A stretch of 64,000 nucleotides of DNA. Origin: Thiovulum sp. ES. GTDB lineage: Bacteria; Campylobacterota; Campylobacteria; Campylobacterales; Thiovulaceae. The notes beneath the pieces were generated by a model that was given only the letters and a program-made list of their open reading frames with translations, was not told where the DNA came from and searched no databases. Below, piece by piece: positions 9,902 through 34,471 of this stretch. The DNA lies in NCBI GenBank assembly GCA_000276965.1, contig AKKQ01000002.1:1537-65536 (forward strand). The letters are read 5' to 3'. A program made the position numbers and the translations under genes. Positions within the stretch are counted from its first letter, which is position 1; every line of letters begins with the position of its first letter.

Positions 9902-12136
9902 TTAACCTTTTGTTGTATGTTTAAATACACCGTCAAAGTCTTCAGGTGGAACTTCAATGTAATGCTCACATCTTTCAATATACATGTTATAAACATTCAC
10001 ATTTGTTTTATCTTCCCAAGAATTTACATCTTTGAAAACTTCAAGAGCTTCAGAAAATTTTGCATTTTTGTAAAGATCGATTGCATGATGATATTGATCT
10101 AATTCTTCTTGTAATCTTTCTCGAGAAACACCAAACATATACTTACCTTTTCCATCTAAACCACCTTCAAAATCGTGAATTTGCCAAATTTCAATAGGTT
10201 CGCTTTTTCCTTTAACAGTAACTAAATCAAGGAAACGATAAATATATTTATTATCATCTAATCGTTCTTTTGTGAAGTTTGAAATATTACATTTTGAGTT
10301 ATAGTATTTACAAAGAGATTCAAGTCTTGCACCGAGGTTAATTGGGTCTCCAATTGCCGTATAGTCGCTTCGTCCAGATGAACCCATTTCACCTACAACA
10401 GCTTCACCAGTATTTAGACCAATACCAATTTCAATTGGATCTTTCCCCATTCCTGCTGCCATTTTACAAGTCGCTATAAATCGAGGGTCTTGTTTGATTT
10501 TTTCATTAATCCAATCACAAGCATGAAGTTGTTCTAATGTTGCAACAACGGCTTTATCAACATGATTTTCTACATCAACTGGAGCATTCCAATAAGCCAT
10601 GATTGCATCACCAATAAATTTATCAACAGTTCCTTCATATTTCATAATGATTTCAGTCATTGGATCCATGTATTCATTTAGGAACTCAATCAGTGTTTTT
10701 GCATCTGGCATTGACTCAGAAATATTTGTAAAGTTACGGACATCAGAGAACATAACCGTAATTTCTCTACTATGCCCAACCATAATATTTCCATCAGGAT
10801 TATTAATGAGGTCTTCCATAACAGCAGGTGAAACTTTTGCTGCAAATTTTCCCTTAATCAATTTCTTTTGATTCTGCTCAAGGAAAAGATTTATAATCAT
10901 CAATACAACAGTTGTTACACCAATTGCAATAAATGGGAACATTGCACTAATCATAATTCCTTCTTCAAACATTTGTCTATAAATCTCATAGGCTGTTCCA
11001 AGAACTATAAAAGGCAAAATAATAAGAACATAATTCGCAGGAACTAGAATAAATAGAGTGCTTAAAACTAGAATTAGTACAAACATTGCAATAACATCAA
11101 AACCTTCAACCCAACTTGGCTTATAAAGAAAATCACCTGCCATTAAGTTGTCAATTGCAGTTGCATGAGTCTCAACTCCAGGATAGACACTATCGAGAGG
11201 AGTGATCCGAATATCAAGAAGTCCCGCTGCTGAAGTACCAACTAAACAAATTGCACCTTGCATTTTTTCTTTGTCAAAATCTCCATTGTAAATATCTAAT
11301 ATTGAGATATATTCAAAAGTTCTTCCTGGACCTCGGAAGTTTAAAGTGAGTCTTCCATATCTATCTGTTGGAATAAACTTTTCACCAACTGTTAAACCAG
11401 CGATTCCGTTTACATTGTAATGAATTCCAACCTCTTCAGCTTGATTTACAAGTCTATACATCTCAAGAGCAAGAGATGAGAAAATTTCATCATCATACTT
11501 TATAACAAGTGGAACAGTTCGGATAACTCCAGATTGATCTGGTGTATTGTTGAAAAATCCACTTGTGTAAGAGTTCTCTTGAATTGTTGGAATATTTAAA
11601 ATAATATCTTGAGAAGTGATCATAAAATCATTACTTTCATCAACACCTTCCTCGATAAAAGTTGCAGGAATCATTGGAACATCTTTTAACTGAAACTCTT
11701 TCTCATTTAAATTAAATGTGTAGCCGAGAACAGTTGGAGTTTGTGCGACAACATTTCCAAAGACCTCATCGTAATTTGCAAAGTTTCCATCGATACCAAA
11801 CTTTTCGGCAAATTTATGCGGAGAAGTTCGGTCTTCTTCTGGAAACATAACATCGAGTCCGACAACAGCAATTCCTGCTTCAGTAAGTTTTTGAAGAACT
11901 TCGGCAAGAATAGTTCGTTCCCAAGGATATTGCCCAAAATGGTCTAAACTCTGCTCATCAATGTCAATAATGTAAATCGGGTTTTTTGGATCAACCGTTC
12001 CCCGATATGTGAAGAATAAATCTTTAACTTTGTTTTCAAATGGTGTGTGATATTGCGGAAAAAGGATGTAAGTCCCAATCACAAGAACACTAATCCCAAA
12101 TGTAAAAGCGATAATACGAAGAAGTTTTCCTAGCAT
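9902..12136 (-). CDS. CHASE2-domain membrane sensor fused to a class III adenylate/guanylate cyclase
   Basis: N-terminal TM, a ~330-aa extracytoplasmic region, then three TM helices. The cyclase core follows: VMFSDVRNFT, VDKFIGDAIMAYW, GLNTGEAVVGEMGS, DYTAIGDPINLGARLES. The Lys in DKFIGD suggests ATP specificity. There is a ~110-aa helical C-terminal tail. Confidence 0.85.
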   Translation of the reverse strand: MLGKLLRIIAFTFGISVLVIGTYILFPQYHTPFENKVKDLFFTYRGTVDPKNPIYIIDIDEQSLDHFGQYPWERTILAEVLQKLTEAGIAVVGLDVMFPEEDRTSPHKFAEKFGIDGNFANYDEVFGNVVAQTPTVLGYTFNLNEKEFQLKDVPMIPATFIEEGVDESNDFMITSQDIILNIPTIQENSYTSGFFNNTPDQSGVIRTVPLVIKYDDEIFSSLALEMYRLVNQAEEVGIHYNVNGIAGLTVGEKFIPTDRYGRLTLNFRGPGRTFEYISILDIYNGDFDKEKMQGAICLVGTSAAGLLDIRITPLDSVYPGVETHATAIDNLMAGDFLYKPSWVEGFDVIAMFVLILVLSTLFILVPANYVLIILPFIVLGTAYEIYRQMFEEGIMISAMFPFIAIGVTTVVLMIINLFLEQNQKKLIKGKFAAKVSPAVMEDLINNPDGNIMVGHSREITVMFSDVRNFTNISESMPDAKTLIEFLNEYMDPMTEIIMKYEGTVDKFIGDAIMAYWNAPVDVENHVDKAVVATLEQLHACDWINEKIKQDPRFIATCKMAAGMGKDPIEIGIGLNTGEAVVGEMGSSGRSDYTAIGDPINLGARLESLCKYYNSKCNISNFTKERLDDNKYIYRFLDLVTVKGKSEPIEIWQIHDFEGGLDGKGKYMFGVSRERLQEELDQYHHAIDLYKNAKFSEALEVFKDVNSWEDKTNVNVYNMYIERCEHYIEVPPEDFDGVFKHTTKG

Positions 12137-28313: not shown

Positions 28314-29726
28314 TTAAAGGTCAAAAGCTTTTATAATATTCTCTTCGGTTGGTTCAACAAAGAAATTATTTTTATACCAATTTGAGATTTCTAAAACTCT
28401 TTCAGGATTCTCTTTTCGATATTTTTTCAATTTCTGGATTGCAATTTCTAACTCTTCACGATTTGAAGCAAATTCCCAGATTTCACCCTGTCCAAACTCA
28501 ACAAGCGGATTTGCCGTCAAATTATTTTGAGACTCAATAATGACAACTGAAACTCCAACAGCAACACCTTCAACTGCTGTTCCAGATTCATCGGTAATCA
28601 TAATTTCTGATGTTTTGAACAAATCATATAAGTTTCCTGAAACAAGTTTAAAACTTTCTGGAATTTGAAATTCTGAAGCTTTTTGAGTTGGGTGTAATTT
28701 TAATTGCAATTTAGTATTTTTACAAATTTCAAATAAATTTATTGTTCTGTCTTTAAAATATGGTGTTAATAAAAGTATTTCTGACCTGTCTAAATTATTT
28801 TTAAATGCAAATAGATCTTTATATCTTAATGAAACACCAAGTTCTAAAAAATTATTTTTTATGTAATATTTACCATTTACTAATATTCGATGAGGTGCAG
28901 ATAAAGTTTTAAAATCCTCTTCAAAAATATAAGTATTGAAATAAGTTGGATAATTTATATAGAGTTGAGAACCAATTATCTCGGCTTTTCCATTTGCAGT
29001 TTTATACCCAAAGTTAAAACTTCTCTCAATTACTTGAAATTCATTCCATGAAATAATCTTTTTAAAATTCATTTCTGAAATATTTTTTCCTACAAAATAG
29101 CGACTAAAAGCTTCAAAGCTCTGGTTTCTTATATCTTTAATAATATGATAATTGAATTGTCTATTTTTATCTAAAAGAGTCAAGGTTTGAAATGGATAAA
29201 TAAATATTTGAAAGAATATTTTTGGCAAATCTGAAAATTTAACAATTTGAAAATCAAAAAGATATTTTTCATTTTTTAAAATATTTAAAATTCTAAAAAA
29301 AGATATTGGATTTATTCCTAATTTAAATATTCTAAGCAAATAAGAGTATTCGATATTTTTTTTATCAAGAACTTCTGGTAACCCTTGAAAATATTTATCA
29401 TAGAATTCATTTTTTTCTAAAACTTGTTCAGAAATCAAAAAAGTATCTATTAGAATATTTTTGTCTTTAATTTGCTTATTGAAGATAATTGAGAAAATAA
29501 TTTTATGAACTACAAAAAGAGAAAGCTTGAAACTCATTTTCAAATAAAAAATAAAAATAGATTTGAAAAATTCTATAAAAATATTATTCTTGCCCTCTAT
29601 TTTTAGGAAATAATTTTTTGGAAAATCTGAAACATATGGATTTGCAGTTAAAGTTGTATTTATAATTGCAAAGAAGTTTTTAGACTTCTTTTTATTTATA
29701 AAGTCAAAAAACTCTTTTAAATTCAT
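28314..29726 (-). CDS. Hypothetical protein; C-terminal third resembles the GT-B / TagF / KpsS-type transferase nucleotide-binding half
   Basis: 470 aa. The segment LKLHPTQK...LYDLFKTSEIMITDESGTAVEGVAVGVSVVII resembles the HP...D(Y)SS...E pattern of CDP-glycerol glycerophosphotransferase-like and capsule transferases. The N-terminal region is unassigned and very AT-rich. Confidence 0.35.
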   Translation of the reverse strand: MNLKEFFDFINKKKSKNFFAIINTTLTANPYVSDFPKNYFLKIEGKNNIFIEFFKSIFIFYLKMSFKLSLFVVHKIIFSIIFNKQIKDKNILIDTFLISEQVLEKNEFYDKYFQGLPEVLDKKNIEYSYLLRIFKLGINPISFFRILNILKNEKYLFDFQIVKFSDLPKIFFQIFIYPFQTLTLLDKNRQFNYHIIKDIRNQSFEAFSRYFVGKNISEMNFKKIISWNEFQVIERSFNFGYKTANGKAEIIGSQLYINYPTYFNTYIFEEDFKTLSAPHRILVNGKYYIKNNFLELGVSLRYKDLFAFKNNLDRSEILLLTPYFKDRTINLFEICKNTKLQLKLHPTQKASEFQIPESFKLVSGNLYDLFKTSEIMITDESGTAVEGVAVGVSVVIIESQNNLTANPLVEFGQGEIWEFASNREELEIAIQKLKKYRKENPERVLEISNWYKNNFFVEPTEENIIKAFDL

Positions 29727-30658
29727 TTATTTGCGGTAATAATAAGAGTATCACCTCTTTTATTCTTTTTTAGAATGTCTAAAAAATCACTATTTACTTT
29801 TTCAAAAAGTGAATTCATTTCTAGCTCAAAACTATTACTTCCACTAAAAAGTTTAGTATTTGTAGTGGCATCAACAAATCTCTTTTGTGGTTCGCCTGTA
29901 AAATACCAATTCAAATAATTTACGATGGTATATTCATGTCTATTTGCAACTTTAATATTTTTAAAACCAATCTTGTCTAAAAGTTTATAAATTGTTTCTT
30001 CATAAAAATAGCTGTAATGTGCTTTATGCCAAAAAAACTTATTAAACTTTTTTCTGTTTTCTTCAGGTAAAAAGAAATTTAAAGCCTCATTCCTATTTGG
30101 TAGTTCAAGATAAATTCGACCATCTTCTTTTAAAGATTTGTAAATTTCTTCTAAAACAGTTGTTGGATTTGGCATATGGTCAATTGCATTAATAGAAATA
30201 ATTAAGTCATATTGCTTTGGAAAGGATAGTTTTTCAAAAAATCCGTAATAAGCATAAATATTTAAACTTTTCATATATTCAACATAAGACTTATTTAGTT
30301 CAGTTGCAGATAGAGTAGAAACATTATCTTTGATTGCATAAAGCAATGAACCAGCACCTGCACCAATATCTAAAACATCATCTCCATCTTTAAGATAAGG
30401 ATTCAAATGAGAAATAAGATTGTCTAAAGTTTTAAATCTTTCTTCAAAATGTTCTTGAACTTCTATATCTGTTTCTTGCAAACTATTTGTTGCGGTATAA
30501 ATATCATTGTAGTATTCTTCTAATTCATCAGAATTCAATTCAATAGCTTGAAAAAAATGACCACAATCTTCGCATTGAACAATTAAACCCTCGCCTTCTC
30601 TAATTTCAGTAGCGATAGTTTTGTAATTTTCACTTTCACATAAATTACATTTTATCAT
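29723..30658 (-). CDS. Class I SAM-dependent methyltransferase with N-terminal zinc ribbon
   Basis: CNLCES...CEDCGH zinc ribbon, then SAM motif I VLDIGAGAGSLL and a post-I acidic residue. This architecture is seen in sugar C-/O-methyltransferases. Confidence 0.75.
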   Translation of the reverse strand: MIKCNLCESENYKTIATEIREGEGLIVQCEDCGHFFQAIELNSDELEEYYNDIYTATNSLQETDIEVQEHFEERFKTLDNLISHLNPYLKDGDDVLDIGAGAGSLLYAIKDNVSTLSATELNKSYVEYMKSLNIYAYYGFFEKLSFPKQYDLIISINAIDHMPNPTTVLEEIYKSLKEDGRIYLELPNRNEALNFFLPEENRKKFNKFFWHKAHYSYFYEETIYKLLDKIGFKNIKVANRHEYTIVNYLNWYFTGEPQKRFVDATTNTKLFSGSNSFELEMNSLFEKVNSDFLDILKKNKRGDTLIITANK

Positions 30659-31716
30659 CTATTATTCTCCAATATATTTATAAAGTTTTGCATATTTTCT
30701 AAATCAGAAACACCAATTCTTCTGTAATCTTTTAAAAACTCTTGAGAAAAGTTCCGTCTAATTAAAATAGAATTTTCTTTCAATTCTGACATAAACTCTT
30801 CTTCATTCTTAATTTCAAGTTTTGCAACTAAAAAATTTGAAACACTGTTACTGTATTCAAGACCCAATCGATTGAGTTCAGTTTTAAGAAACTCTAAACT
30901 TTTTAAAGTCTCTTTAATGTTTTTTTCAACTAGATCAAAATTATCTAAAAGAACAATTGAAGAATTGATTGCAAATTGACTCAATTCATGCATTGGTTTT
31001 ACTTTAGAAAGATTTGATATATTTGTTTCATTACTAATAATATAACCAACTCTAGCAGATGCTAAACCTATTGCCTTTGAAAATGTTCTTACAACAATTA
31101 GGTTTTGAAAACTGTTAATATATTTGCTCATTGTTGTATTAATAAAATGAAAATAAGCTTCATCAACAACAGCAAGAATATTTTTTTTCTCACACTCTTT
31201 TATTAGTTTTAATAAATTTTCTTCTGTCTGTTCAACTCCAAGAAAACCATTTGGGTTTTCAATTACAACCATCTTGGTTTTTAAAGTAATTTGAGAAATC
31301 ATCTTGTCAAAGTCTAATGAGAAATCTTTTTCAAAATTTATACTTTTAACAGTTGCACCAAACATTTTTGCATAAACTGAATACATTGCATATGATGGTT
31401 CATGTAAAACAATTTCATCTCCATCTTCTATATAAGTTTCAAATATTGATTTAATTGATTGATCAGACCCAGAATTAAAAAGCAAATTACTTATTTTAAC
31501 TTTTTCAAATTCTGCCATTTTTTTATAAAGTGGTAATGGTTCTGGATAAATCATCAACATCTCATCAGTAATTTTTTCTTTAATTTGATTTAGAATATCT
31601 CTATTAAATTCTAGTGTTCTCTCATTTCTATCAAGCCGAATTTTACTGTATCTACTTTCCGAGAGATTATCCCTCATTCTATATAAATCTTCTATATTTT
31701 TTTTAGGTTTAACCAT
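30655..31716 (-). CDS. Class I/II PLP-dependent aminotransferase or decarboxylase (HisC/CobD-like)
   Basis: 353 aa. The PLP-lysine context RTFSKAIGLASARVGY, NPNGF, and DEAY motifs are typical of the histidinol-phosphate aminotransferase family. Confidence 0.8.
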   Translation of the reverse strand: MVKPKKNIEDLYRMRDNLSESRYSKIRLDRNERTLEFNRDILNQIKEKITDEMLMIYPEPLPLYKKMAEFEKVKISNLLFNSGSDQSIKSIFETYIEDGDEIVLHEPSYAMYSVYAKMFGATVKSINFEKDFSLDFDKMISQITLKTKMVVIENPNGFLGVEQTEENLLKLIKECEKKNILAVVDEAYFHFINTTMSKYINSFQNLIVVRTFSKAIGLASARVGYIISNETNISNLSKVKPMHELSQFAINSSIVLLDNFDLVEKNIKETLKSLEFLKTELNRLGLEYSNSVSNFLVAKLEIKNEEEFMSELKENSILIRRNFSQEFLKDYRRIGVSDLENMQNFINILENNR

Positions 31717-32524
31717 AAAACTCCTTTAAACTTTCTAATGCACTTTGAAGATATAATGGATAATTATCGCCAGATTTATTTAAAATTTCACCACTAACAA
31801 AATTACTATAATTCACATCTTCTAATAATTTTTTTATTTGCTTATGTTTTTCAGCAAACTCATTTCCTAAAATTTCAAAATTTGGATTACTTGCATGAAC
31901 ATGTTTTATATATTTTGAATACTTAAATATCTTTTTTATATCTTCATCACTTTCAAAAATACTTTTAATATCTAGTTGAATAAATATATTTAAGAAAGTT
32001 TCATTTTCCAAAAGAGAAACACCTTCAAGAAAACTATTTAAATAATTACAATATGTTTTTGGAAGTGGTTCGATATGCAAAAACACATTATTGTTTTGTA
32101 AATTCTCATCAAGTTCTTTTAAGAATTCAATAAAAATCAAGTCAGCCTTTGCCTTAGAAATATTTTTAATATTTCTTGATTGTGCCGAACCAAACACAAT
32201 GTTTTTTGTTCCTAGTTTATTTGCAACTTTAATATAGAATTTAATATATTCAATAAGTTCATTTCTTGTATTGTCAAAAATATTTAAATCTGGTCTGGTA
32301 TAAGTTAGTGAATGAATAGCTGAAACAGAAATAGTTTCTAACTGCTTTTCCAACCATTGAAAGTCTTTTGCCGTCATATTCAATGGTTCTTCAAATATAG
32401 AATTTAAAGACAACTCAATTGCAAAAATTCCGTTCTTTTTTACTTCTTCGATGAATTTTGCAAATTCATTTTTTCCTTTTTTCCATATAATATTTGAAAT
32501 TGATATTTTCATATTTTGTTCCAA
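31709..32524 (-). CDS. Xylose-isomerase-like TIM-barrel protein (sugar phosphate isomerase/epimerase family)
   Basis: 271 aa with an alternating pattern: IELSLN, AIHSLTY, NIVFGSA, LHIEPLP, HVHASN. This is consistent with the AP-endonuclease-2/IolE-type TIM barrel. Assignment is moderate. Confidence 0.55.
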   Translation of the reverse strand: MEQNMKISISNIIWKKGKNEFAKFIEEVKKNGIFAIELSLNSIFEEPLNMTAKDFQWLEKQLETISVSAIHSLTYTRPDLNIFDNTRNELIEYIKFYIKVANKLGTKNIVFGSAQSRNIKNISKAKADLIFIEFLKELDENLQNNNVFLHIEPLPKTYCNYLNSFLEGVSLLENETFLNIFIQLDIKSIFESDEDIKKIFKYSKYIKHVHASNPNFEILGNEFAEKHKQIKKLLEDVNYSNFVSGEILNKSGDNYPLYLQSALESLKEFYG

Positions 32525-33396
32525 GCTTTAAAACTCTCTTTTCCCATAACTGTTCCAAGAACATCACAAGTTTTGCAAGGTGTAAAATTTCGATTACTAT
32601 TTGATAGGTTTTTTCTCATAGTTTCTAATTTTTTTCCTCTCCAAATATCCAAAATATTTTCATTTTGTAAATTTCCAAAAATCACACTTTTTTTCCAATC
32701 ATGCGGACAAAGTAAAACATCTCCGTTTAAATCAACCAAAATCATATAAAATGGATAAAAACATTTCTCTTTGATTGGAAGTTCTAAGATTTTTTCTTCA
32801 TTTTTATCTCGGAATTCATTTGAATCTATTAAACCAGCTCTGTTTGAAATCGTAATGCCATAATTTCCATTTTCCCAATATCGGCGACGAAGAACGACAA
32901 AATCTTTTGGAACTTCTGACTCTTTTTGCATATTTTCAAAAATATCAATTTGATGTTTTCCATCATACATACTTATATTAATTGTGTCTAGTCCAGCATC
33001 ATATAATTTTTTTAATTTTTTTGCAGTAACTAAATCTCCGTTTGAGACAATTTCAATTCGACAATTTTGTAAATTTTTTCTTGCAGTTGAAATAAGTTTT
33101 TCGATCTCTTTATGTAAAAGTGGCTCAGAAAATGCTGAAAAAAGAATTTTTCCAGAGTAATTTATTTCTTTTAAATCAAGTGTAATTTTTTCAAAAAGTT
33201 CTGGTGAAATTGCATCGTTACTTCTTATATAAACTTCAGGATTTGAAACAGGGCAAAATGAACAATCACGATTACAATTTCCTGTAATATTAAATTCAAG
33301 AATGGAGAAAAGTGGAAAATCATTTATAAATTTTAAATTATTTTTTACTATCGTATTTTTGCGGTTTGTGCTTTGATCTATAAACCTATTATTCAT
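32509..33396 (-). CDS. Radical SAM enzyme with C-terminal SPASM/twitch-like Cys-rich domain
   Basis: CNRDCSFC (CxxxCxxC) near the N-terminus. C-terminal cysteines lie in CFYPF...LLCPHDW...PCKTCD. Confidence 0.85.
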   Translation of the reverse strand: MNNRFIDQSTNRKNTIVKNNLKFINDFPLFSILEFNITGNCNRDCSFCPVSNPEVYIRSNDAISPELFEKITLDLKEINYSGKILFSAFSEPLLHKEIEKLISTARKNLQNCRIEIVSNGDLVTAKKLKKLYDAGLDTINISMYDGKHQIDIFENMQKESEVPKDFVVLRRRYWENGNYGITISNRAGLIDSNEFRDKNEEKILELPIKEKCFYPFYMILVDLNGDVLLCPHDWKKSVIFGNLQNENILDIWRGKKLETMRKNLSNSNRNFTPCKTCDVLGTVMGKESFKAWNKI

Positions 33397-33444: not shown

Positions 33445-33993
33445 TTATATTTGAGATAAAAACTCTCTCTTCACTTCAGAAAGTTTAAAATCCCCTTTGT
33501 ATGATGAAGTCGTTGTTTGGCTTCCGCACTTTTCAACTCCCCTCATTTCCATACACATATGTCGAGCTGTTACCACAACTCCGACACCTTTTGGAGAGAT
33601 AGCATTTTGAATTGCATTGGCAATTTGTTCAGTCATATTTTCCTGAATTTGCAATCTTCGTGCAAAAACATCAACAACTCTAGGCAATTTTGAAAGACCT
33701 GTTACTTTACCGTTTGGAATATAGCCGATTGAAGCAGTTCCAATAATCGGAAGCATGTGGTGTTCGCACATAGAGTAGAATTCAATGTTTTTGACAACAA
33801 CCATTTCATCATTAGTTGTTTCAAAAAGAGCAGAATTCAAAATTTTTTCAGGGTCTTTAGTGTAACCGCCGAGAATATGACCAAAAGCTTTTGCTACTCG
33901 ATGAGGTGTCTTAACTAGTCCTTCCCGTGCAGGATTTTCGCCGATTGCATGGAGTATCTCTTTTACAGACTCCTCGATTTTACCACTCTCCAT
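33445..33993 (-). CDS. folE: GTP cyclohydrolase I
   Basis: Carries the motifs [23 protein letters not shown] and [13 protein letters not shown] moved the start to ATG 33993; the ORF-track extension to 34071 overlaps the upstream ankyrin gene. Confidence 0.9.
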
Positions 33994-34009
33994 AAAATTA
34001 TCTTTCTTC

Positions 34010-34471
34010 TTAAAGGAATGAGAAGAAATCTTGTCTCCCGAATTTCTGTGCAAGTGCTTGTGCTGATGCACCTCTCATGTTGATAAGACCTTTGTTACAA
34101 CCTTTTTCAACAAGAATTTTTCCAAATTCAGCTTTGTCATCAACAACAGATTCCATGAGTGGAGTCCAGCCAACTTTATCAACAAAGTCTAGATTAGCAC
34201 CTTTTTCGATGAGGTAAAGGAAAACTTCCATTTTGCCAAATCGGATAGCGATGTGAAGAAGTGAAGAACCAAAATCTCCTTGCTCACTGCTATTTACATC
34301 GATTCCGTTTTCAATACAAGTCGTTACAGATTCTAAATCACCTTTTTTGATGAAATATTCAACAACAGAAAAATTATCTACTGAACCATCAACAAAACCA
34401 GCATTTTTAATTTTTTCAGTTTGTTCGTCATTTAAGAATGTGAAATTCTCTAAAACTTCAGTTAAAGTCAT
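34010..34471 (-). CDS. Ankyrin-repeat protein
   Basis: Repeats of the type [42 protein letters not shown]. Confidence 0.85.

Follow-up and report, generated by a model that had tools for sequence, protein, structure and literature searches.

Background

The radical S-adenosylmethionine (SAM) enzyme BtrN acts in the 2-deoxystreptamine pathway of butirosin biosynthesis, and its auxiliary [4Fe-4S] cluster is bound by four cysteines (PMC10337720). In the HS:2 capsule system of Campylobacter jejuni, Cj1437 forms serinol phosphate by transamination of dihydroxyacetone phosphate, serine phosphate is decarboxylated by Cj1436, and Cj1435 is a HAD phosphatase (PMC11800397). Here we describe a cluster of five minus-strand genes in a 64-kb window of the Thiovulum sp. 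ES genome (contig AKKQ01000002.1, positions 1,537 to 65,536; "window" denotes this whole stretch of analysed DNA, 64,000 nucleotides), coding for a radical SAM enzyme (gene 1), a xylose-isomerase-like triosephosphate isomerase (TIM) barrel protein (gene 2), a pyridoxal phosphate (PLP) enzyme resembling HisC and CobD (gene 3), a SAM-dependent methyltransferase (gene 4), and a protein without family annotation, termed X (gene 5). We propose, with moderate confidence, that the five genes form a tailoring-and-transfer module for a Wzx-dependent surface glycan, which might be a lipopolysaccharide (LPS) O-antigen, a capsule or a similar polymer.

Clusters devoted to the biosynthesis or tailoring of surface glycans are known as a kind; the predicted radical SAM oxidation step is unusual, and the putative transferase family represented by X is unannotated. 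To our knowledge, there is no earlier case of a BtrN-type radical SAM enzyme in surface-glycan biosynthesis. A literature search retrieved no publication on this locus or on this combination of enzymes; subscription journals were thinly covered, so that absence is not proven. A preliminary description of this DNA, made from the sequence alone, had found no characterised pathway onto which the cluster could be mapped, and neither family searches nor the literature have since yielded one.

Related surface-glycan loci in Campylobacterota

Using a set of reference proteins, we mapped 44 non-redundant loci that contain X (designated by L numbers); counts of upstream genes refer to the 31 loci with at least 6 kb of upstream sequence. 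X is the constant gene of this family of surface-glycan loci. The canonical order begins with a Wzx flippase, an aldolase of the HpaI/GarL type, a KdsB-like cytidylyltransferase and a variable slot of one to four genes. The slot is followed by genes of a PGDH-like 2-hydroxyacid dehydrogenase, a short-chain dehydrogenase/reductase (SDR) of the epimerase/dehydratase type, a PF04199 cyclase, a HAD phosphatase, and X. Downstream of X, the order continues with RfbF, a cytidine diphosphate (CDP)-glucose 4,6-dehydratase, a cupin, a reductase, and a glycosyltransferase of family GT2. The cytidylyltransferase and HAD genes were each found in 26 of the 31 loci, the dehydrogenase gene in 23, and the aldolase and cyclase genes in 22 each, while RfbF/CDP-glucose genes are located downstream of X in 29/37 loci. 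Wzx was detected in 13/44 loci by tblastn, in addition to Pfam calls. The cytidylyltransferase passes the KdsB subfamily cut-off (324 versus 255 bits), and the gene downstream of X is identified as rfbF by a score of 418 bits, which is over the equivalog cut-off. In some loci, an HMGL-like enzyme, fused or adjacent to the KdsB-like gene, takes the place of the HpaI-type aldolase (L002/L025, 6338-8644; L012, 11632-14010), which looks like a non-homologous replacement; the HMGL-like superfamily also includes pyruvate aldolases.

Judged by homology and gene order, genes 1–4 of Thiovulum sp. ES are one filling of the variable slot, composed of the radical SAM, TIM barrel, HisC-like and methyltransferase genes. 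L054 has orthologues of the radical SAM enzyme (70% identity to the ES protein), the TIM barrel (49%) and the methyltransferase (63%), with an SDR replacing the aminotransferase; its slot is located between the KdsB-like gene and the 2-hydroxyacid dehydrogenase gene, and X follows downstream. L055 contains radical SAM (62%), TIM barrel (45%) and SDR genes together with a different methyltransferase gene. In both loci, the TIM barrel orthologue (45–49% identity) directly follows the radical SAM orthologue, and for at least 13 TIM-barrel homologues in all, the longest contig is equal in length to that of a radical SAM homologue, so that the two genes probably share a contig. A HisC-like gene shares the slot with a radical SAM gene in L037, which encodes a radical SAM enzyme (68%), a HisC-like enzyme (39%) and a GNAT acetyltransferase, and likewise in L027, L029 and L007, where a distantly related radical SAM/SPASM protein is accompanied by a HisC-like enzyme and a methyltransferase. 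Further fillings consist of radical SAM (64–71%) and SDR genes (L009, L010, L021, L035, and L040 from Candidatus Thiovulum stygium). Taken together, cassettes of the ES type comprise a BtrN-type enzyme, optionally a TIM barrel, then an SDR or an aminotransferase, and often a methyltransferase or GNAT protein as a cap.

Orthologues of genes 1, 2, 4 and 5 are thus embedded in polysaccharide loci with Wzx, cytidylyltransferase, CDP-glucose and GT2 genes, which upholds the role in surface-glycan modification considered in the preliminary description; for gene 1, the orthologues in Campylobacterota glycan loci share 61–73% identity. As to conservation of the gene neighbourhood, the series radical SAM–TIM barrel–(SDR)–methyltransferase with X downstream in L054 and the pair radical SAM–HisC in L037 bear it out. 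It does not extend to the TolC-family gene next to the cluster, into which the five genes had been thought to feed: a TolC gene beside the cluster was found in none of the related loci mapped, and we have abandoned this idea. A role in flagellin glycosylation was also considered and is less likely, given the Wzx flippase within the more completely sampled loci.

A BtrN-type radical SAM enzyme

The gene 1 product matches the BtrN structure 4m7t over its full length (E=1.6e-25; query residues 28-280, chain residues 23-258). Its CX3CX2C motif, CNRDCSFC (C41, C45, C48), aligns with CNRTCWYC of BtrN, and each of its exactly four C-terminal cysteines (C212, C230, C274, C277) aligns with a cysteine of the BtrN auxiliary cluster. 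The arginine of an SNR-G segment, which we take to be a candidate catalytic base in BtrN, is conserved between the two proteins. Because the match is full-length and all cluster cysteines are aligned, the gene 1 product is assigned to the BtrN-type twitch radical SAM enzymes with one auxiliary cluster, and not to the two-cluster SPASM maturases. The SPASM/twitch-like region noted previously is recognized by the Pfam models, which report Radical_SAM and SPASM domains, but it is more precisely described as a BtrN-type twitch domain with a single cluster. The enzyme is predicted to turn a secondary alcohol into a ketone; a keto product would fit the ketoreductase or aminotransferase gene that comes next, directly or behind the TIM barrel gene, in the ES-type cassettes mapped.

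Putative epimerase, aminotransferase and methyltransferase

The gene 2 product exceeds the gathering threshold of PF01261 (59.5 versus 31.1 bits) and, when aligned to D-tagatose 3-epimerase (8xiv), retains the E-D-H-E metal/catalytic tetrad of ketose 3-epimerases. Scores for specific equivalogs fell below the cut-offs of 300–353 bits: the best NCBIfam match is the inositol-pathway epimerase IolO (68 bits, cut-off 300), and psicose epimerase and hydroxypyruvate isomerase scored 30 and 29 bits, respectively. The protein is predicted to be a metal-dependent keto-sugar epimerase or isomerase.

The gene 3 product scores 145 bits with PF00155 and 231 bits with the hisC model TIGR01141. Since the latter value is under the equivalog cut-off of 276.55, the protein is placed in the HisC/CobD-like fold class without being regarded as a HisC orthologue; all other named NCBIfam equivalogs scored far under their cut-offs. 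The translation carries the PLP-lysine motif TFSKAIGLASARVGY and two C-terminal arginine positions (ILIRR, YRRIGV), which presumably correspond to the substrate-phosphate binders of E. coli HisC. We predict that it acts as a transaminase on a keto intermediate.

For the gene 4 product, Methyltransf_23 (PF13489) is the best model with 66.9 bits, and there is a weak, sub-threshold match to CPxCG_zf. The protein had been likened to sugar C-methyltransferases on account of its N-terminal ribbon; however, it matches generic class I models and gave no match to the sugar C-methyltransferase models Methyltransf_13/14 of Pfam, so that this designation is no longer maintained.

Protein X, an unannotated GT-B family

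X matches no Pfam or NCBIfam family. An AlphaFold model built on 52 homologues, with a predicted local distance difference test (pLDDT) score of 93.5 and a predicted template modelling (pTM) score of 0.91, shows a complete GT-B fold of two Rossmann-like domains, preceded by about 85 helical residues. The preliminary description had correctly recognized GT-B features but confined them to the C-terminal third, whereas the protein as a whole adopts this fold. A Foldseek search returned 102 matches in the PDB at E<=0.001, and the best 50 of these 102 are all GT-B enzymes; the matches include CalG3, uridine diphosphate (UDP)-N-acetylglucosamine (UDP-GlcNAc) 2-epimerases, TagF, TarL, MurG and OleD. 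A profile search against PDB sequences gave noise only. Comparison of the 52 family members with Pfam at E<=1 retrieved no TagF/Glyphos_transf, no Capsule_synth (KpsS/KpsC) and no bacterial sialyltransferase family; weak signals came from DUF6716 (33/52 members, best E-value 1e-4), Glyco_tran_28_C and Epimerase_2.

Among the invariant residues of the family, K343-x-H345-P346 and S381-G382..E386 are both located in the C-terminal domain; a near-invariant SPH279 and the motif SWSEFQ..ER are further conserved. An HP motif which binds the cytidine monophosphate (CMP) donor is characteristic of bacterial sialyltransferases (PMC2169525) and also occurs in beta-Kdo transferases, Kdo standing for 3-deoxy-D-manno-octulosonate (PMC10148158). 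From motifs, model and gene context, X is predicted to be a glycosyl- or phosphotransferase using a cytidine-nucleotide donor.

In a library clustered at the 50% identity level, 1632 family representatives were retrieved at E<=1e-3, among them hundreds of full-length homologues in Campylobacterota. Homologues with 36–61% identity occur in Thiovulum, Sulfurimonas, Sulfurovum, Arcobacteraceae, Campylobacter iguaniorum and Campylobacter sp. M4. Outside this phylum, X is sporadic (Colwellia hornerae, a metagenome-assembled genome (MAG) of Ozemobacteraceae, and MAGs of Bacteroidota and Gammaproteobacteria). A natural fusion protein of metagenomic origin (P0260, 723 aa), in which a HAD phosphatase (residues 1-185) precedes an X domain (220-723), mirrors the adjacency of HAD and X genes in 26/31 loci. 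In Candidatus T. stygium (L040, CP091137.1), X is present in two overlapping pieces, namely, residues 4-147 at 10001-10453 and residues 143-470 at 10438-11451; this points to a frameshift, pseudogene or assembly error, the canonical locus being complete in other respects.

Proposed pathway and alternative explanations

Observed folds, families, catalytic residues and conserved neighbourhoods are the basis of the following scheme. The BtrN-type enzyme would oxidise, independently of nicotinamide adenine dinucleotide (NAD), a secondary alcohol of a sugar or of a 3-deoxy-ulosonic acid precursor to a ketone. The metal-dependent TIM barrel would then epimerise or isomerise the carbon adjoining the ketone, the HisC-like PLP enzyme would convert the ketone to an amine, and the methyltransferase would add a methyl group. 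This order, oxidation, epimerisation, transamination and methylation, is inferred because the cassettes recur as BtrN-type enzyme, optional TIM barrel, ketone-consuming enzyme and cap. Methylation probably occurs elsewhere than on the new amine, since the orthologue with 63% identity works in a cassette with an SDR instead of an aminotransferase. Finally, X would act as the transferase and pass on the product, activated most likely by linkage to CMP or CDP, with the growing glycan as acceptor.

Several observations weigh against this scheme. Relatives of BtrN can be epimerases instead of dehydrogenases, HygY being an example. We assume that Cj1436 and Cj1437 are HisC/CobD-like. These two enzymes act on small phosphorylated substrates (PMC11800397); the true substrate may therefore be a phospho-ketose or a phospho-polyol instead of a nucleotide sugar. 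For X, the TM scores with generic GT-B folds, UDP-GlcNAc 2-epimerases included, are about 0.35–0.45 at roughly 10% identity, and the D/E-D/E-G motif of sialyltransferases is not evident among its invariant columns. Besides, tblastn searches of the 64-kb ES window found no aldolase, KdsB-like cytidylyltransferase, 2-hydroxyacid dehydrogenase, cyclase, HAD or RfbF/RfbG gene; the base sugar and its activation must therefore be encoded elsewhere or be of a different type.

Since UDP-GlcNAc 2-epimerases are among the weak fold matches of X, and indeed among the best structural ones, X might alternatively be a GT-B-fold nucleotide-sugar hydrolase or 2-epimerase (PseG/NeuC/LegG-like) of the same glycan pathway. 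A free 6-deoxyhexose released from the CDP-sugar formed by RfbF and RfbG would then be condensed with pyruvate by the HpaI-type aldolase to a new ulosonic acid, which the KdsB-like enzyme would activate. The presence of rfbF and rfbG after X in 29/37 loci, and of aldolase and KdsB-like genes upstream in most loci, agrees with such a route, and nonulosonic acid pathways follow a similar logic in their sequence of enzyme types. We nevertheless consider it rather unlikely: X persists in the ES cluster, L007 and L015 with no RfbF/RfbG, aldolase or cytidylyltransferase gene nearby, which would leave a hydrolase without substrate or purpose there; the HAD–X fusion resembles the transferase–phosphatase pairs of GT-B sugar-phosphate synthases; and the separate GT2 protein is the only other transferase in most of the mapped loci, where a second one is needed. 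A small-molecule pathway, in which an aminated, methylated cyclitol of the aminoglycoside kind would be glycosylated and exported through TolC, is improbable. Among solved structures, BtrN is the one most closely related to gene 1, IolO is the best NCBIfam match of the TIM barrel (even if far below its cut-off), and the TolC-family gene is located just behind X; however, the orthologues of genes 1, 2, 4 and 5 lie in the Wzx/CDP-sugar/GT2 loci described above, and the TolC gene accompanies no related locus. Moreover, the cluster and its annotated neighbours contain no 2-deoxy-scyllo-inosose or inositol-phosphate synthase, and the aminotransferase is HisC-like rather than of the DegT class of aminocyclitol pathways.

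The Pfam SPASM call and weak NCBIfam peptide-maturase matches, far under their cut-offs, would be expected of a radical SAM/SPASM system maturing a ribosomally synthesized and post-translationally modified peptide (RiPP) whose precursor had escaped recognition. We deem this highly improbable: the four C-terminal cysteines provide for one auxiliary cluster, compared with two clusters (7–8 cysteines) in SPASM maturases, the alignment with BtrN is full-length, the conserved neighbours are sugar enzymes, and the 48 nt to folE upstream and the overlapping gene downstream leave no space for a precursor open reading frame (ORF). It is likewise very improbable that the cluster is no functional unit and that a housekeeping hisC, a methyltransferase gene and unrelated genes came together by chance in an AT-rich stretch. 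HisC is the top family of gene 3, and all genes of this 10-kb stretch are on the same strand, which makes co-orientation weak evidence; yet the hisC score is below the equivalog cut-off, the gene orders of the ES type recur in L054 (with X downstream) and L037, and all four junctions overlap. On these grounds, the RiPP, aminocyclitol-export and chance-juxtaposition explanations were rejected.

Returning to the proposed tailoring-and-transfer module, a more far-reaching idea, which we put forward tentatively and regard as possible rather than probable, concerns the parent locus. It might encode an undescribed class of CMP-activated 3-deoxy-ulosonic acids, in which a pyruvate-dependent aldolase of the HpaI/GarL or HMGL type replaces the phosphoenolpyruvate (PEP)-dependent synthase of the NeuB/KdsA type, the new GT-B family X installs the sugar, and the hypervariable slot with its BtrN-type enzymes diversifies it.

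Organisation of the gene cluster

The ORFs and overlaps of the five minus-strand genes were recovered as described earlier (Table 1), and Pfam and NCBIfam searches agree with the earlier domain assignments; the earlier reading of a single, tightly packed module is upheld as well. X corresponds to ThvES_00001040 of the homologue database (100% identity), although an exact-sequence look-up of X gave no entry, and the remaining products of the cluster are likewise identical to their NCBI entries. All four gene junctions overlap, the last three by 8, 4 and 4 nt. The extent of the first overlap depends on the start of gene 2, being 16 nt with a TTG start or ATGA with the ATG at 32512; the ATG is the more likely start because of the ATGA overlap with the stop codon of gene 1 and the length of the NCBI product (267 aa). 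A promoter scan was uninformative in the AT-rich DNA (52 promoter-like sites versus 49 expected), and a terminator scan of the same DNA gave no hit; operon boundaries are therefore drawn from the overlaps only. The five genes form a compact module and are probably co-transcribed.

Table 1. Genes of the Thiovulum sp. ES cluster and its upstream neighbours (positions in the 64-kb window)
Gene	Product	Position	Strand	Family assignment
Gene 1	Radical SAM enzyme	32509..33396	-	Pfam Radical_SAM + SPASM
Gene 2	Xylose-isomerase-like TIM barrel, 267-271 aa	31709..32524	-	PF01261 (AP_endonuc_2)
Gene 3	HisC/CobD-like class I/II PLP enzyme, 353 aa	30655..31716	-	PF00155 (Aminotran_1_2)
Gene 4	Class I SAM methyltransferase with N-terminal CxxC...CxxC ribbon, 311 aa	29723..30658	-	PF13489 (Methyltransf_23)
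Gene 5 (X)	GT-B-fold protein (predicted structure), 470 aa	28314..29726	-	no Pfam/NCBIfam family
folE	FolE (longest ORF, GTG start)	33445-34071		
Ankyrin gene	Ankyrin-repeat protein	34010-34471		

An OEP/TolC-family gene is located 62 nt 3' of X and is followed by rsmG. On the upstream side, the distance between the radical SAM gene and folE is only 48 nt, in agreement with the earlier remark that no small precursor ORF adjoins the radical SAM gene. The longest folE ORF has 62 nt in common with the end of the ankyrin-repeat gene; since the Pfam match begins only at residue 32, the true start is probably an internal ATG (MESGKIE...). The folE–ankyrin pair is also kept in the Thiovulum relative L007. 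The remaining annotated genes of the window are housekeeping genes (BamA, an epimerase, CTP synthase, and others).

Variation within Thiovulum, base composition and the question of import

X is present in every Thiovulum genome sampled, with partner genes that differ from genome to genome. In the ES cluster, the slot genes are joined directly to X. In L007/L008, a non-orthologous HisC–radical SAM–methyltransferase cassette (31%, 27% and 24% identity) lies beside an X of 56% identity, with FolE (77%) and ankyrin (75%) genes nearby in a different arrangement. Candidatus T. imperiosus has sulfotransferase, cupin, SDR and cytidylyltransferase genes, followed by X; in this genome (L004/L014, 12381-14590), an AAA_15/AAA_21 ATPase gene and two small ORFs occur between the 2-hydroxyacid dehydrogenase and SDR genes, an insertion which may be of the defence type. 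In Candidatus T. karukerense (L015, 5901-8076), X stands alone without glycan genes around it, flanked by tsaE and an ABC-ATPase gene (ABC_tran with a BCA_ABC_TP_C tail), presumably LptB-like to judge from this domain pair, and by a DHHA1-domain gene. X thus looks resident in Thiovulum; as it is kept while its partners turn over, exchange of cassettes is supported. The ES cluster is a stripped-down, atypical version of a locus widespread in Campylobacterota.

With a G+C content of 25.6%, compared with a mean of 32.2% (5-kb windows, standard deviation 2.1%), the cluster represents the G+C minimum of the window, in keeping with the AT-richness already noted; only 0.3% of all 5-kb windows have an equal or lower value, and the highest 1-kb G+C anywhere in the window is 39.1%, as against the value of more than 40% quoted earlier for the mdh/fumarase region. 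The G+C content at third codon positions (GC3) is 15–17% in the five genes, as compared to 20–31% in the flanking genes. X by itself (24.1% G+C, GC3 16.6%) is as AT-rich as the cassette.

The 9-mer CGATGAGGT occurs in 44 copies in the 64-kb window (24 on the plus and 20 on the minus strand; positions, e.g., 1048, 1151, 2328 ... 62520) versus 0.14 expected, and the next base is C in 26/44 copies. Contigs from other species of Thiovulum (L004, L006, L007, L013, L015) carry the word at 0.2–0.6 copies per kb, and it is rare or absent in the remaining Campylobacterota loci examined; it behaves like a genus-specific uptake-signal-like word. The cluster contains one copy (28888-28896) versus about 3.5 expected, so that the low count reported earlier is real, but it is not significant (P(<=1) ~0.14). 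Similarly, the longest of the 43 gaps free of CGATGAGGT measures 5.0 kb, and about 1.3 such gaps are expected (mean gap 1430 nt). The 3.7-kb cassette proper has no copy versus 2.5 expected (P ~0.08), which hints at depletion and is suggestive only. The sole copy in the cluster falls in X, on the codons of the conserved (S/A)-P-H-R motif (gcA CCT CAT CGa); two further Thiovulum-like X genes carry it at these codons as well (codon 285 in both L006 and L013).

Horizontal acquisition had been proposed from base composition and motif density. Motif depletion was rejected as evidence of import in view of its P value of about 0.14, and low G+C is no mark of recent import because X looks resident yet is equally AT-rich; it characterises loci of this type and does not prove recent import. 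What stands of the proposal is the turnover of cassettes between Thiovulum genomes.

Significance

The way in which Campylobacterota interact with phages, hosts and their surroundings is shaped by surface glycans, whose chemistry is in large part undescribed. X represents a large GT-B family without annotation that is a fixed point of a phylum-wide locus and scattered in other phyla. The slot is modular (oxidise; epimerise, reduce or aminate; cap), and its alternative fillings predict related sugar variants. A BtrN-type dehydrogenase, known from aminoglycoside biosynthesis, would have been recruited here to tailor the envelope glycans of microaerophiles and anaerobes. Seen from Thiovulum alone, the significance is modest, namely a strain-specific glycan decoration, and the reduced ES copy is not the best model system. 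The locus is a lead for glycobiologists or radical SAM enzymologists; it overturns nothing established.

Comparison with known systems

The BtrN/BtrS pair of butirosin biosynthesis (4M7T, 4M7S) is similar in logic: a twitch radical SAM dehydrogenase converts a ring CH-OH to C=O (PMC10337720), and a PLP aminotransferase converts the ketone to CH-NH2. Gene 1 aligns with BtrN over the full length, including both cluster-binding motifs. However, the phmmer score is just 93 bits, the context is a surface polysaccharide and not an antibiotic, the aminotransferase of the ES cluster is HisC-like instead of DegT/BtrS-like, and a TIM-barrel epimerase and a methyltransferase are added. Likened by description, Cj1435–Cj1437 of the C. 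jejuni HS:2 capsule also combine PLP enzymes with a HAD phosphatase to make an amino-alcohol decoration in a surface-glycan locus of Campylobacterota; in contrast, the ES cluster contains neither amide ligase nor HAD, and its ketone is proposed to derive from the radical SAM reaction and not from central metabolism. In Shewanella, Kdo is converted to Kdo8N by KdnB-catalyzed oxidation and subsequent transamination by KdnA. There, too, an ulosonic acid undergoes oxidation and then transamination, after which it is activated with CMP and attached to LPS, but oxidation is catalyzed by a metal-dependent alcohol oxidoreductase rather than a radical SAM enzyme.

X shares two Rossmann-like domains with the GT-B enzymes that use CMP-sugars (sialyltransferases of families GT38/52/80, beta-Kdo transferases of families GT99/GT107) and with TagF and TarL, the latter two being among its Foldseek matches. 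An invariant His-Pro, which resembles the HP motif of the CMP-sugar enzymes, comes after the second strand of its C-terminal domain, and X also has an S-G-T..E nucleotide loop; in 26/31 loci, its neighbours include the gene of a KdsB-like CMP-sugar synthetase. X differs from all of these proteins in belonging to none of their Pfam families, in showing no evident D/E-D/E-G motif among its invariant columns, in TM scores of only about 0.35–0.45, and in its extra N-terminal helical region of about 85 residues. At the level of the whole locus, nonulosonic acid (pseudaminic/legionaminic acid) and O-antigen loci resemble the one described here in several ways: a hypervariable slot holding methyl-, acetyl- and aminotransferase genes accompanies a conserved core, the G+C content is below the genome level, and gene content differs between close relatives. 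In contrast to nonulosonic acid loci with their PEP-dependent synthase of the NeuB type, the X loci encode a pyruvate aldolase of the HpaI/GarL type, or an HMGL-like enzyme, together with a KdsB-like cytidylyltransferase.

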